Shown piece after piece: positions 4,169 through 53,481 of a stretch of 64,000 bases of DNA. Position 1 is the stretch's first letter. Every line of letters begins with the position of its first letter. Source of the DNA: Escherichia phage Pollock; sequence record NC_027381.1; one strand, 5' to 3'. The notes under the pieces are model-generated. The model saw only the letters and a list, made by a program, of their open reading frames with translations, made no database searches and was not told the DNA's origin. The position numbers and the translations under genes were made by a program.

Positions 4169-4214
4169 TACAAATGCTTCTTATACAGGAGCATCTTTAT
4201 AAAACTATGTAGGA

Positions 4215-4670
4215 TTGGATATGAAAGTTAAACTGAAAGTACTTCCATTTAATAACACCAATATGAGCTTACCTAAACCAGCAACAGATGGTTCTGCTGG
4301 TATTGATTTACGAGCCAATACAGTTATGCCATTCGAACTTAAACCGGGAGAAACTACTCTGGTAAATACTGGTTTAGCTATCCATCTGGATGATGTTCAC
4401 TATGCAGGTATGATTTTACCTCGTTCTGGGTTAGGGCATAAACATGGTATTGTGCTTGGAAATCTTACAGGTCTCATTGATAGTGATTATCAAGGGGAAC
4501 TGATGGTAAGCCTCTGGAATCGCTCTACAAAGCCTTTTACTATTAATCCAGGTGACCGTATTGCTCAGTTAGTTATTGTGCCTGTAATGCAGCCTGAATT
4601 TGTTATAGTAGACTCTTTTGAAGCTACTGAAAGAGGCGAAGGTGGTTTCAACTCTACTGGAGTTAAGTGA
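4215..4670 (+). CDS. dut: dUTP diphosphatase (dUTPase)
   Basis: 151 aa; near-identical blocks to E. coli Dut as recalled: [59 protein letters not shown]. Confidence 0.92.
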
Positions 4671-4843
4671 TGACTGAACCAATGAGTAAGTTTGAGCTAG
4701 AAAGACATATCCATAATCTTAAGGAATATGATTCCAAGATTGCTGGTCATGAATCTGAAGTAGTTCGTCTACAAGAAGAACGTCGAGAGTACATTAATCG
4801 ACACAATCTTAACAAGATTGCAGAGAAGGTATTTCCTGCTTAA
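4670..4843 (+). CDS. hypothetical small protein (57 aa, coiled-coil-like)
   Basis: ATG overlaps dut stop (GTGATGA); not in ORF track because under 60 aa; translated by eye. Confidence 0.3.
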   Translation: MTEPMSKFELERHIHNLKEYDSKIAGHESEVVRLQEERREYINRHNLNKIAEKVFPA

Positions 4844-4865
4844 GCGCCTACGGCGCTCTCTTTGG
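4843..4865 (+). promoter_or_regulatory. recurrent motif: GC hairpin with 3-nt loop (aGCGCC-TAC-GGCGCt) followed by TCTCTTTGG
   Basis: one of four near-identical instances (4843, 5646, 13796, 59899); function unknown. Confidence 0.4.
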
Positions 4866-4898: not shown

Positions 4899-4905
4899 GG
4901 GGAAA

Positions 4906-5217
4906 ATGATGGCTAAAGAACCAATCTCCAAACTATGTATTCCTATTGGAGATAAATATGAAATTACCTCTAATGGGTATTCATATGTATTAGTTGAGAA
5001 AAGAACTGTTCAATCAGGAGTTAAAGCTGGGACTACTGCTTCCAGTAATGTTGGTTATTTTCAGACTTTAGGTTCTCTTGCTAAACAGTTAATTAATAAA
5101 GAAGTATGTGAAACTAACATTACTTCTTTACAACAATTAAATGAGCGTATCGAAGAACTAGGTATTGGTATAGCTCAGTTACTTGAACAACTTGTTAAAC
5201 AAAATGAAGGTAAATGA
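4906..5217 (+). CDS. hypothetical protein
   Basis: ORF track gives 4897 (TTG); ATG at 4906/4909 after a GGGGA RBS is more likely. Confidence 0.4.
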   Translation: MMAKEPISKLCIPIGDKYEITSNGYSYVLVEKRTVQSGVKAGTTASSNVGYFQTLGSLAKQLINKEVCETNITSLQQLNERIEELGIGIAQLLEQLVKQNEGK

Positions 5218-10111: not shown

Positions 10112-10142
10112 TTGCCCTCTTTGTGAGGGCATCTTTTTTTGG
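10112..10142 (+). terminator. rho-independent terminator
   Basis: gccctc-tttgt-gagggc hairpin followed by atcttttttt. Confidence 0.6.
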
Positions 10143-11371: not shown

Positions 11372-11508
11372 TACGTCTAAATCTCCTATTGCATGGGATA
11401 TCTTTCGTATCCCTTCAAAACATGTATGTCGAACCAAGAAACGCACTGTAGCCACTATTGCTCGTAATAAGGGTTATCGTGTGATTCCTGTGTTCGGAAG
11501 AAGTTAAA

Positions 11509-11523
11509 GCCCCTTCGGGGCTT
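11509..11523 (+). promoter_or_regulatory. GC hairpin with 3-nt loop (AGCCCC-TTC-GGGGCT)
   Basis: same hairpin architecture as the recurrent motif but without TCTCTTTGG; ~80 nt upstream of a highly codon-biased gene. Confidence 0.3.
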
Positions 11524-25989: not shown

Positions 25990-26012
25990 AGCCCTCTACG
26001 GAGGGCTTTTTA
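25990..26012 (+). terminator. rho-independent terminator
   Basis: gccctc-tacg-gagggc followed by ttttt. Confidence 0.6.
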
Positions 26013-38139: not shown

Positions 38140-38170
38140 GTACTAAAAGAAATCCCTCACTAGGAGGGAT
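38140..38170 (-). terminator. terminator-like hairpin (minus strand)
   Basis: atccctc-actag-gagggat with T-run on minus strand, between upstream structural gene and the giant ORF. Confidence 0.45.
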
Positions 38171-38177
38171 TTTGTCA

Positions 38178-40069: not shown

Positions 40070-42445
40070 TTAACTCCTCATAGAATTTAAGTCAGTAGGT
40101 AATGTTAAAGCATAATCAACATAATTCTCTATACTTTCTAAGGTAACAACACCTGGATTTGTACTTAAAGTTCTAGTAAAGAATTCATCTGGCTGTTCAA
40201 ATAAATTAAAGAATGCAGAGTTAATTAATGCATCTATATCAATATTAGGATTTATAGTTCCTAAAGCATCCATAGCATCTTCAATCTCTTCCATCTGCTT
40301 CTTATAGTTTTCAGCATTCTTCTGCATCTCTTTAACGATATTTTGTAAATCTTGCTGTAGACGCATTTGAGCACCCTTAGCAACTGAAGGTACTAAATTC
40401 ATTACTTCAGTAGCATAAGGGAGTCCTTTGTTACCTGTAGTACCATACGATTGATATGCAGATACTGCTCCATAGGTAAGCATTGCAATAGTAGCAATGA
40501 ACATAATATTTGGACTAACAAACTTAGCTAAAATAGAAACACCAAAACTAATAGCTAAACCAATAGCTACTTGAGTAGTGATGTATACAGCTACAGCAGC
40601 AGCAACAGAAGTACCAGCAGCAGTAGCAGCACTTGCAGCAGCAGTAATACCAGCAGATAAAGTACCCAATGAATACACAGCAATTACTACAGCAATAGCT
40701 ATAGTAACTACTTTAAATATTCCAGATTGATACCACTTAGCTTTAGTAACTTGATATGAGTTAACTACAATATGTAAGCAGTCATATGTCATCTGAGTAC
40801 GATGAACAATTTGTTGTGCATCTACAATATTTGCACATAAGGGAATAAGAAATCCTTCATTATCTGGGTCAGATAAACTAGCTTCTCCAGTAATATTTAC
40901 TGAATGCCCTTTGTATATATAGTTGATATGTTCTAATCCACATATCTCTACTTCTTCATATTGAGTTTCAGATATCTGTTTTCTGAACAAGATAGTAGAA
41001 ACATCAGCAGTCATTTCTACTGATGCATTAAGTATGTTTACTACATTGATTGTAGCCTTATTACCTACGCTTCTAGTTACAGTACCAATACTGCCAATGC
41101 TTCCATTTTTTACAGTAAGGTCTGAATATTGATATGCAATGGTAATATCATAAGGGTCTTGTCTTAGGCTTAATCTGTTAACAGGAGGTTTGCTATCAGT
41201 GTTAGAAATAGTACCTTCTTCATTAACATTCTCTGTATACCATTTAATATAATTTTCTTTATCGTTAGGAGATACCTGAGCCAGATATTTAAAGAACTCA
41301 TGTAAGTAATCTATGGAAGATTCATACTTTGAATTTAAAGAAATACCCATTACAAAGAATGCATGGTCTATATCTTTAATATCTGGATTCTCATTTAAGG
41401 TATCCCCTAAATCTGTAAATCTGAGATTCAATTTATTAAGTAGAGTTTTACTGGTTTTGAATTGTTCTGCACTGACATTATTTGGGTCAGTTAAATCTGT
41501 ATTATTTACTCTTAAAGGTACAACAGGATAATAGGCAGAATCCCTAACTACATCAGTTAAGATTTTATCCAGTATAGGATAAGTTCCTGAACCAGCTTCA
41601 TAAATAAAATATTTTTTACGAGATAGAGTACTTACAACAACTGTAGTTGTAATAGTGGTTTCAGTCTTATCTTCATTAATAGTTGCCTGTACTGTAGTAA
41701 CAGTTGAAGTTATTAAACCAAAATTATTATTAATGGTTTCATCAGTAGTAGTACCTTCTTCATCTCCTTCTTCATATGCTCTGGTTTCTGTAGTTACTTC
41801 AGGAGTACCCGGAGTACGTACACGATAAATTACCTGATAGTATTCAGAACCATAGTTAATATCTGAGAAGGAAACTTGTTCTGTAAAATCAATTTCAGAA
41901 CCAGTACCCATTGTAATGGTGACTACACCATTATTATCAATAGACCAGTCAATGGTAGCTGTAGAAGCTACTCCTGCTGGTGGATTACCCATACCACCAT
42001 AGTCTGCATCCCAATCATATGTATTAGTCAGATACCGTTCTATCCAATAAGATAGGTCAGCTACGTTATAATCTGACATTACAATAGATACTTCTTTTCC
42101 TTCATTTAATGAAGAAAGTACAGTCATCAAATCATCGTAGTTAGGTACAACATAAAAAATAGAACCATCTGGTAATCCTAATGAATAATAATCTCTACCA
42201 TATCTATATGCTTGTCTAATCTGAGTACCCATACCATTCAAGTATGCTTGGTTTAAAGTACTTCCAATACCACTACCATTCATAACAGCAGTGGTAATAG
42301 TTTTCTGTAAAAAGTTTTCAGCATCATCTCCAGCTAAATTAACTGTAACTGAAGATACTGAAATAATTTTCTTTCTACTAAATAATCCCATATACATTAA
42401 AGGGGGCTTTCGCCCCCTCTCCTTAATATGTAACACTAACTCCAT
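40070..42445 (-). CDS. large virion protein with C-terminal hydrophobic segments
   Basis: 791 aa; long hydrophobic region near C-terminus; true start may be an internal Met (~42397/42391) because a hairpin overlaps the first 16 codons. Confidence 0.45.
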   Translation of the reverse strand: MELVLHIKERGRKPPLMYMGLFSRKKIISVSSVTVNLAGDDAENFLQKTITTAVMNGSGIGSTLNQAYLNGMGTQIRQAYRYGRDYYSLGLPDGSIFYVVPNYDDLMTVLSSLNEGKEVSIVMSDYNVADLSYWIERYLTNTYDWDADYGGMGNPPAGVASTATIDWSIDNNGVVTITMGTGSEIDFTEQVSFSDINYGSEYYQVIYRVRTPGTPEVTTETRAYEEGDEEGTTTDETINNNFGLITSTVTTVQATINEDKTETTITTTVVVSTLSRKKYFIYEAGSGTYPILDKILTDVVRDSAYYPVVPLRVNNTDLTDPNNVSAEQFKTSKTLLNKLNLRFTDLGDTLNENPDIKDIDHAFFVMGISLNSKYESSIDYLHEFFKYLAQVSPNDKENYIKWYTENVNEEGTISNTDSKPPVNRLSLRQDPYDITIAYQYSDLTVKNGSIGSIGTVTRSVGNKATINVVNILNASVEMTADVSTILFRKQISETQYEEVEICGLEHINYIYKGHSVNITGEASLSDPDNEGFLIPLCANIVDAQQIVHRTQMTYDCLHIVVNSYQVTKAKWYQSGIFKVVTIAIAVVIAVYSLGTLSAGITAAASAATAAGTSVAAAVAVYITTQVAIGLAISFGVSILAKFVSPNIMFIATIAMLTYGAVSAYQSYGTTGNKGLPYATEVMNLVPSVAKGAQMRLQQDLQNIVKEMQKNAENYKKQMEEIEDAMDALGTINPNIDIDALINSAFFNLFEQPDEFFTRTLSTNPGVVTLESIENYVDYALTLPTDLNSMRS
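42395..42419 (-). terminator. hairpin (possible weak terminator/attenuator, minus strand)
   Basis: gggggc-gaaa-gccccc on minus strand just after stop of ORF 42423..43067. Confidence 0.3.
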
Positions 42446-43067
42446 CCGCTACCTTTTTGGTAAATGCATCAACTGCACTTGTATCAAATCCTGTAGGTAG
42501 AGGAGTGCCATCATCAACCGTCTTACGAGTAATCCAAGTATCAGCAATTATCTTCAGAGCTTTCTGTTCAGCATCTCGTAAGAAACCTTCTTTCTGCTGT
42601 TTATATAAAGCTACCTGAGCACCAATAATTCCTGTTACTGAAGTACCATCAACTGTATCAGATATTTGAGCTATCTCAGTTTTAACCTTTTGAGCAATAA
42701 GGTCAGCATTAAGCTGTTGAAGTTCAATTTGTTTATCTAACAATTGAAGTTCTTTATCTGCTTTCTCAAGTTCTTTATCTGCTAATTCAATTTGTTTATT
42801 AGCCAGATTAATTTGAGATTCAACTAAAAGGTTATTGAGATAGGTCTTATCCTTTTCAATAAGAAAAGTGACAGCTTGAGCTAGTACTGCTGTTAACTGG
42901 CCTAAATATACTTCTGCATATTGAGTACCAGTAATTCTGTCTTTATCCCACTGGTTATCTAGATGAGCATTGGCTGCTGACATCAACTCATCAAAGATAC
43001 CAGAACCACCAACTACCTTAGTAGTTAGGTCTTCATTTGTAATTGGATTGATAACAACAGCCATCAT
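42423..43067 (-). CDS. coiled-coil protein (hypothetical)
   Basis: 214 aa; heptad-like LxxKxxE repeats. Confidence 0.4.
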   Translation of the reverse strand: MMAVVINPITNEDLTTKVVGGSGIFDELMSAANAHLDNQWDKDRITGTQYAEVYLGQLTAVLAQAVTFLIEKDKTYLNNLLVESQINLANKQIELADKELEKADKELQLLDKQIELQQLNADLIAQKVKTEIAQISDTVDGTSVTGIIGAQVALYKQQKEGFLRDAEQKALKIIADTWITRKTVDDGTPLPTGFDTSAVDAFTKKVADGVSVTY

Positions 43068-43626: not shown

Positions 43627-43698
43627 AAATATTTTCCTTTTAACTTTCTGGGTGGAACCAGTTTTATATGGTCTCGGTAAGTTTACCGTATTTTAAGG

Positions 43699-43725
43699 AT
43701 AAAAAAAGAGTGGGTTTCCCCACTC
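43699..43725 (-). terminator. strong rho-independent terminator after capsid gene (minus strand)
   Basis: gagtggg-gaaa-cccactc followed by 7 T on minus strand. Confidence 0.65.
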
Positions 43726-43742
43726 TCTTTGCACTTACTGCA

Positions 43743-53451: not shown

Positions 53452-53481
53452 TTCTAAAAAAATCCCCTCCGAAGAGGGGAG
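53452..53481 (-). terminator. rho-independent terminator (minus strand)
   Basis: tcccctc-cgaa-gagggga hairpin followed by 7 T on minus strand. Confidence 0.6.

Follow-up and report, generated by a model that had tools for sequence, protein, structure and literature searches.

The 64,000-nucleotide stretch of DNA from Escherichia phage Pollock analysed here (sequence record NC_027381.1; hereafter the window) belongs to an N4-like podophage of the family Schitoviridae, and this report concerns the junction between the gp54-like and gp53-like genes of its late operon, at which a GC hairpin lies between the gp53 start codon and its only Shine–Dalgarno (SD) motif. The closest database relatives are the Ithacavirus phages S5, As2, FSL SP-058, FSL SP-076, UTK0001 and Shigella B2 (76–80% nucleotide identity); Triduovirus TR2 shares 73% nucleotide identity with the window. 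The late operon occupies the minus strand in the order portal, two small genes, major capsid protein, gp55-like, gp54-like, gp53-like, gp52-like, gp51-like and virion RNA polymerase (vRNAP), and the gene order gp56–gp55–gp54–gp53–gp52–gp51–gp50 is identical in the window and in N4. The gp54-like gene, encoding a virion structural protein of 214 amino acids (aa), extends over 42423–43067 and matches phrog_2050 (E = 1e-76), and the gp53-like gene (40070–42391; 773 aa counted from the ATG at 42391–42389, beginning MGLFSRKKIISV) matches phrog_2220 (E = 3e-234); no Pfam match was obtained at this pair. A tblastn search with residues 1–300 of the gp53-like protein, counted from 42391, matched 165 Schitoviridae records, and homology together with synteny with gp54, gp52, gp51 and the vRNAP gene places the large gene in the N4 gp53 family; the database relatives carry the labels 'similar to N4' gp54 and gp53 for this pair. 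According to a cryo-electron microscopy (cryo-EM) preprint from 2025, gp54 of N4 is the tail tube and gp53 the single-copy tail plug, in a tail with a 12:6:1 symmetry mismatch containing 12 copies of the tube protein and one of the plug per virion, and gp52, gp51 and gp50 are ejection proteins (PMC12633501).

Read along the minus strand, to which all coordinates of the junction refer, the gp54-like gene ends with GTT ACA TAT TAA (stop codon 42425–42423) and is separated from the gp53-like gene by a spacer of 31 nucleotides (nt). The sequence AAGGAG at 42424–42419 overlaps this stop codon and forms part of an SD motif, UAAGGAG (42419–42425), in which seven bases are complementary to the 3′ end of 16S rRNA. 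After a single A at 42418 follows the hairpin (42402–42417), which begins 5 nt past the stop codon, is in the sense orientation and consists of the arms GGGGGC (42417–42412) and GCCCCC (42407–42402), forming six G–C pairs, and the GNRA tetraloop GAAA (42411–42408), with a folding energy of −13.3 kcal/mol. The A/U-rich tail between the hairpin and the conserved AUG, UUUAAUGUAU (42392–42401), is a weak U-tract; the order of elements 3′ of the hairpin is TTTA, an in-frame ATG (42397–42395), TAT, the ATG at 42391–42389 and then GGA TTA TTT. The longest open reading frame (ORF) is obtained from yet another ATG (42443–42445), placed in a different frame 23 nt inside the upstream gene, and gives a translation of 791 aa beginning MELVLHIKERGRKPPLMYMGLF. 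A previous interpretation made from the letters alone (hereafter the sequence-only reading) had described a GGGGGC-GAAA-GCCCCC hairpin just past the upstream stop codon and overlapped by the start of the ORF at 40070–42445, and this is confirmed in the sequence; its suggestion that the hairpin is intergenic also stands, the hairpin lying between the gp54 stop codon and the conserved ATG 42391.

Comparison with relatives indicates that the gp53-like gene starts at the family-conserved ATG 42391 (MGLFSRKK..., 773 aa) and that ATG 42445 is an artefact of the longest-ORF rule. Every annotated relative that was examined, N4 included, starts gp53 at the ATG aligned with 42391, so that the comparison with homologues proposed in the sequence-only reading gave coincident starts. 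MGLFS is the N-terminus of the protein in N4, Bp4, Pylas, EcP1, Ithacavirus, TR2 and Axy04, an MG(L/F)F N-terminus is common to 165 phage records and 23 IMG/VR loci and reaches phages of Vibrio, Rhizobium, Achromobacter and roseobacters, and the tblastn alignments begin at query residue 1 in all of the matches listed but one. ATG 42445, in turn, sits within the conserved gp54 codons GCG-GAT-GGA for Ala-Asp-Gly. In Ithacavirus an in-frame TAA is found three codons past the equivalent of this ATG and 14 codons upstream of the conserved start, with no start codon between this TAA and the conserved ATG; the window has lost this stop (gcg TAA to gtg TTA), and it is only because of this loss that the ORF extends to 42445. 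A real 791-aa form was thus ruled out by the out-of-frame overlap with gp54, the in-frame TAA of Ithacavirus and the family-wide MGLFS N-terminus. The view that the first 16 or so codons of the ORF (16–18) are noncoding is borne out by the conserved start and the Ithacavirus stop, whereas the description of the start as mis-called does not hold in the sense that no annotation is wrong: the 791-aa length arises from the longest-ORF rule, and annotations of the database relatives already use the short form.

The first eight codons of the gene (42368–42391, minus strand) present an observation of their own. Their product, MGLFS(K/R)KK, is kept where Schitoviridae gp53 proteins, such as those of Vibrio, Rhizobium, Achromobacter and roseobacter phages, are otherwise only 25–35% identical, and this conservation may reflect either a function of the protein or a constraint on the initiation region. 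The peptide is similar to the pattern for N-myristoylation in eukaryotes (MGxxxS and then basic residues), for which we know of no meaning in bacteria. The N4 cryo-EM model of gp53 begins at residue 9.

Of the two internal Met codons that the sequence-only reading had put forward as better starts, 42391 is conserved throughout the family, whereas 42397 is unique to this phage. Ithacavirus and TR2 have ATA at the corresponding codon, and none of the other loci examined contains an in-frame ATG in the interval from the hairpin to the conserved start. AUG 42397 may therefore be regarded as an alternative start specific to this phage, which would add Met-Tyr (MYMGLF..., 775 aa); its distance from the SD motif is 21 nt, or 5 nt with the hairpin folded out. 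The substitutions behind ATG 42397 (ATACTT to ATGTAT) and in the last gp54 codons (AAC TAC to ACA TAT) create a predicted outer helix of 5 base pairs (bp), in which CAUAU (42430–42426, the last gp54 codons) pairs with AUAUG (42393–42389). This outer helix covers the conserved AUG 42391, and AUG 42397 is predicted to be largely open and more accessible; in this model, the phage may initiate at 42397, or initiation at 42391 may need the helix to be opened by ribosomes that are translating the last part of gp54. The outer helix rests on one sequence and therefore cannot be checked by covariation.

Apart from this hairpin, the 64-kb window, with a GC content of 36%, contains no perfect all-G/C stem of 6 bp with a 3–5-nt loop; a first-order Markov model gives an expectation of 0.03, which places the hairpin well beyond chance. 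The 81-nt region around it folds at −23.1 kcal/mol (z = −3.05 versus shuffles), and the base-pair probability of the hairpin core is approximately 1. For comparison of the junction, 13 distinct lineages were assembled, namely the window, six genera or isolates from databases and loci of IMG/VR from an alignment-based scan: a locus search with a single protein matched only IMGVR_UViG_2706796286_000001, which is identical to the window, and a six-sequence alignment as the query reached 24 loci in IMG/VR. A GC stem of 5–7 bp was present at the equivalent place in all 13 lineages, with the arm variants GGGGGC/GCCCCC, GGAGGC/GCCTCC, GGGAGC/GCTCCC, GGCGGC/GCCGCC, GGGCGC/GCGCCC and GGGGC/GCCCC, as well as GGGGGC/GCCTCC with one G·U pair in lineage L037. 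In the MAFFT alignment of the 13 lineages, 96.2% of the cells are paired, compared with 42–73% for slid partners, the three unpaired cells all stemming from the 5-nt loop of EcP1, which MAFFT left ungapped; three pairs show changes on both sides, in nine cells, and none of 500 shuffles reached the score. The loops are mostly GNRA (GAAA, GUAA) or UNCG (UUCG, UACG) and fall into stable classes of RNA tetraloop only when read on the sense strand, the G·U pair of L037 would be an A·C mismatch on the opposite strand, and the U-rich tail occurs at the 3′ side of the hairpin only. Loop class, G·U pair and the position of the U-tract on one side together indicate that the hairpin has been selected in mRNA and not in DNA or antisense RNA, and by this comparative evidence it is a well-supported conserved RNA structure under selection in the sense orientation. 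A search of Rfam returned no family match, the best hit being SraG on the opposite strand with 22.7 bits against a gathering score of 50; as all Rfam matches were at chance level, assignment to a known RNA family was dropped.

The sequence 5′ of the stem is equally constant. An SD motif (AAGGAG, GGAGG or AGGAGG) is located 0–4 nt 5′ of the stem in 12 of the 13 lineages, and none of these 12 has an SD-like motif in the 8–12 nt between the hairpin and the AUG; in the window, GCCCCCUUUAAUGUAU, on the side running from the hairpin to the AUG, contains no such motif. The inspection of the ribosome-binding site (RBS) that the sequence-only reading had recommended thus did reveal an SD, UAAGGAG, yet at a distance of 27 nt from AUG 42391 and 5′ of the hairpin. 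With the 16-nt hairpin folded out, this distance becomes 11 nt. Across the 12 lineages the raw distance from SD to AUG is 25–31 nt, and the hairpin-subtracted spacing is 10–11 nt in nine and 12–15 nt in the remaining three. The gp54 stop codon overlaps the SD in the window, Ithacavirus and Pylas, is 4 nt upstream of it in TR2 and is 13–14 nt upstream in EcP1, G19 and L024, so that the adjacency of SD and hairpin has been kept despite a shift of the stop codon by up to approximately 14 nt. The lineages that lack the hairpin (N4, Bp4, Axy04, phi1_146050, L031, L033–L036 and L038) have the gp53 ATG right after the stop codon or an adjacent SD-like motif. Within the window, all other genes have an SD 4–9 nt from the ATG, gp53 being the sole exception, and the other terminator-like hairpins that were inspected are each followed by a downstream SD, gp53 alone having its SD before the hairpin. 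As the only SD for gp53 is upstream of the hairpin, the hairpin sits inside the RBS.

The 3′ flank points to a second property of the hairpin. TT(T) follows the stem directly in 13 of 13 lineages, and the tail is 8–12 nt long in all of them except L030. Tails of the relatives 3′ of the stem include UUUUUACU, UUUUUUAUU and UUUUUUUAUU, and further T-rich tails are TTTTTACT, TTTATTTTT, TTTTTTATT, TTTTTTTATT and TTTTTATTTT; in the relatives 6–7 of the first 8 nt of the tail are T, with runs of 5–7 consecutive U in most of them. The tail is weaker in the window and in Ithacavirus (TTTAAT), the U-tract of the window, UUUAAUGU, having three consecutive U and five U in 8 nt. The tails were ranked with a rough index of the d'Aubenton-Carafa type, which is uncalibrated and serves for ranking only. 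A GC stem with a directly following T-rich tail is the signature of an intrinsic terminator. Lineage L030 retains the hairpin and the T-run without an SD before the hairpin, its SD, GAGG, following the T-run and preceding the ATG by 7 nt; the retention of the hairpin together with a downstream SD implies a role of the hairpin that is independent of bridging. In the N4-like phage LUZ7 most of the mapped terminators are leaky and act stepwise along the structural operons, and host RNA polymerase transcribes the late operons of N4-like phages including LUZ7 (bioRxiv 10.1101/2022.03.18.484859).

A hairpin within an RBS would apparently add a further, terminator-like case to the rare class of split RBSs. 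The split RBSs of genes 25 and 38 of phage T4 are reportedly the subject of Nivinskas et al. 1999, J Mol Biol 288:291 and Malys & Nivinskas 2009, Mol Microbiol 73:1115. At the T4 26–25 junction, which was read directly, GAGG is followed by 27 nt and the ATG, and an AU-rich hairpin, CUCAAAG-AGUU-CUUUGAG (−6.4 kcal/mol), lies within gene 26. In the reviewed cases the hairpin brings the spacing down from 27 to 11 nt for gene 25 and from 22 to 5 nt for gene 38, and mutagenesis, lacZ fusions and dimethyl sulfate probing showed that it enhances initiation (PMC3014915). The resemblance of the Pollock junction is close: the SD is 27 nt from the AUG in both the window and T4 gene 25, with 11 nt remaining when the hairpin is folded out, and the 21 to 5 nt of the additional AUG 42397 compares with the 22 to 5 nt of gene 38. 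As in both T4 genes, the hairpin lies wholly between SD and AUG at an intercistronic junction of virion genes, and the structure is kept in close relatives and absent from distant ones. The differences are that the gene 25 hairpin is AU-rich, is contained in the coding region of gene 26, the stop codon of which overlaps the gene 25 AUG, and has no terminator character, whereas that of the window has a GC-rich stem closed by a tetraloop, is situated in a genuinely intergenic spacer and is followed by a U-rich tail. The T4 hairpin is supported by mutational and probing evidence, that of the window by sequence comparison and predicted folding.

With respect to termination, the nearest parallel is ColE7 T1, a leaky intrinsic terminator between cei and cel that sets gene dosage (PMC2896534). 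ColE7 T1, the LUZ7 terminators and the Pollock junction have in common a GC hairpin with a U-rich tail between co-transcribed genes at a drop in the needed product, with read-through that would, at the Pollock junction too, feed the downstream genes. However, ColE7 T1 is followed by a separate SD for the downstream gene, as are the other inspected terminator-like hairpins of the window and those of N4, whereas at the gp54–gp53 junction the SD precedes the hairpin, the U-tail leads directly into the AUG and the U-tract is short. A search of the literature for an SD–terminator–AUG arrangement found only conventional cases such as ColE7 T1, and this absence is no proof of novelty. N4 and the other Schitoviridae share with the window the gene order, the MGLFS N-terminus of gp53 and the tail-tube and tail-plug proteins, whereas in N4, Bp4, Axy04 and Klebsiella phage phi1_146050 the gp54 stop codon is 1–3 nt before the gp53 ATG and no hairpin is present; N4 has terminator-like hairpins after gp56 and after gp55 instead.

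Taken with the position of the genes, these features suggest that the hairpin probably lowers the production of the tail plug, of which one copy is present per virion. The best reading, to which we assign a probability a little above even, is that it combines leaky termination within the operon with the bridging of a split RBS, at a point where the required dosage drops 12:1. The late mRNA would carry a composite element consisting of the overlapping stop codon and SD (UAAGGAG), a single A, the GC hairpin with its GNRA loop, a U/A-rich stretch of 10 nt and the AUG. The hairpin and its U-rich tail would form a leaky intrinsic terminator acting on host RNA polymerase and would lower transcription from the tail-tube gene into the genes for the tail plug, the ejection proteins and the vRNAP; on transcripts that read through, the folded hairpin would loop out 16 of the 27 nt between SD and AUG, and the effective spacing of approximately 11 nt would then permit initiation. 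The supply of transcript would in this way be cut where the dosage need falls from 12 (tube) to 1 (plug). We infer termination, bridging by the hairpin and the dosage rationale from the sequences. The terminator-like role seems to be the older and more general one, given that L030 has retained hairpin and T-run alongside a conventional SD; the split RBS would then be a consequence of compaction of the spacer. The more specific proposal, that one hairpin does two jobs, with transcriptional and translational attenuation within 31 nt setting the approximately 12:1 protein ratio, is tentative, and we place it somewhat below an even chance. In this phage the newly arisen AUG, with its effective spacing of 5 nt, may additionally shift the start site. 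The 'terminator or attenuator' of the sequence-only reading is accordingly plausible as far as it goes, but it gives half the picture, as the only SD lies upstream and the hairpin is inside the RBS.

Several points weigh against this reading. The U-tract of this phage, UUUAAUGU, is short and poor, and a consensus terminator scan did not list the hairpin site; the scan missed it because an A–U/G·U extension of the stem consumes the three U's, which makes this absence uninformative. AAGGAG is not enriched in the window (33 occurrences, with 36 expected), so that the case for the SD rests on its conserved position across lineages that are themselves related. Once the width of the helix end is added to the 11 nt of effective spacing, the distance is at the upper limit for initiation led by an SD. 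Weak pairing between the SD purines and the U-tract is predicted for those lineages in which the U-tract is long, and such pairing would hinder initiation, which fits an attenuator and not an enhancer. Finally, the 12:1 stoichiometry is that of N4, which itself lacks the hairpin.

Alternatively, the hairpin might be a terminator or attenuator only, which stops the upstream transcript or stabilises its 3′ end, in which case translation of gp53 on read-through RNA would not involve the upstream SD. Initiation would then be S1-dependent on the unstructured U/A-rich leader, or would occur by reinitiation approximately 30 nt past gp54, and the purine tract 5′ of the stem would be a mere partner of the U-tract in an extended stem, as it is in the minimum free energy folds. 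The terminator signature in all 13 lineages, including L030 with its conventional downstream SD, agrees with this, as does a low output for a one-per-virion protein, and the overlap or proximity of the gp54 stop codon and the SD motif in several lineages would suit reinitiation. We nevertheless consider it rather unlikely: the 5′ flank is specifically SD-like (AAGGAG, GGAGG, AGGAGG) and not A-rich as in ordinary terminators, no other inspected terminator-like hairpin in the window has an SD-like 5′ flank, and the sole lineage without the upstream SD has a downstream one, a complementarity that is predicted by a functional SD; the model based on proximity to the stop codon is weakened by EcP1, G19 and L024, in which the stop is 13–14 nt further upstream. 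Conversely, the hairpin might solely join SD and AUG, with no useful termination in this phage, for which the U-tract in the window and Ithacavirus, merely UUU followed by AAU, the exact match of 27 to 11 nt to T4 gene 25 and an A/U-rich spacer that favours initiation too could be adduced. This leaves unexplained the constant GC-rich stem with runs of 5–7 U in most relatives and the L030 hairpin and T-run with a downstream SD; furthermore, deletion of the spacer would give equal spacing, as in N4, Bp4 and Axy04, and we judge it to be improbable.

Least probable of all, and in our estimation very unlikely, are another role in RNA, as a protein-binding or processing site or a barrier to decay, a hairpin acting at the DNA level, such as a promoter of the N4 vRNAP type, or a real 791-aa form. 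N4-type early promoters are DNA hairpins, which gives the second of these some attraction; it was ruled out because the loops belong to RNA tetraloop classes only on the sense strand, one lineage has a G·U pair and the U-tract is confined to one side, features that point to sense RNA, and because the site is in the late operon and the loop has 4 nt rather than 3. For the 791-aa form there is a weak AAGGT motif 5 nt upstream of ATG 42445, against which stand the out-of-frame gp54 overlap, the Ithacavirus stop codon and a covariation of the hairpin that disregards the codons of the extension. GC hairpins can protect mRNA ends, as has been suggested for ColE7 T1 (PMC2896534), whereas the hairpin described here is without an Rfam match.

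For annotation, the consequence is that gene callers following the longest ORF add 18 false residues to the tail plug and a false overlap with the tail-tube gene, and the conserved start 42391 should be used; as an annotation matter this correction is ordinary, since the relatives already carry the short form. If the composite reading of the junction as leaky terminator and split RBS is true, this may be a second, independent natural split RBS outside the T-even phages, built from a terminator-like hairpin at a drop in virion stoichiometry from 12 to 1, and the compact 31-nt part could serve to tune the expression ratio of two adjacent genes. No general principle is changed by the junction.

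The window contains further hairpins of related form. Perfect 6-bp stems with at least five G/C pairs number six, with 0.15 expected from the Markov model. The five besides that at the junction are at 4843–4857, 10114–10130, 11508–11522, 25991–26006 and 53464–53479, all outside the longest-ORF coordinates; a T-run follows the stems at 4843, 10114 and 53464, those for which the flanks were inspected, and the five are probably the other intrinsic terminators of the phage. Past the major capsid protein gene (44930–43743, minus strand), a 116-nt spacer (43627–43742, minus strand) contains a strong terminator-like hairpin at 43730–43703, AAAGAGAGTGGG-GAAA-CCCACTCTTT, followed by more T's, and two smaller hairpins downstream of it, CGGTAA-AC-TTACCG and CTGG-TTCCAC-CCAG. 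As2, B2 and TR2 have the main hairpin and a large part of the sequence downstream in nearly unchanged form, an analogue in N4, GGGGAGG-GAAA-CCTCCCC, is found after gp56, and the hairpin probably marks the capsid-to-tail dosage step. Another hairpin, AAATCCCTC-CTAGT-GAGGGATTT followed by CTTTTAG, is located at 38150–38172 (minus strand) between the gp51-like gene and the vRNAP gene (38103–27490, minus strand, 3537 aa), 47 nt before the ATG of the latter. The hairpins in the capsid spacer, at the gp54–gp53 junction and at 38150–38172 break up the late operon into blocks with declining copy number. In N4 (locus L041), terminator-like hairpins are present on the minus strand at 4199–4277 and 4905–4966, after gp56 and gp55, each followed by a normal SD, with none between gp54 and gp53; as these positions differ from those in the window, the placement of attenuating hairpins along the late operon varies between the subfamilies of the Schitoviridae.

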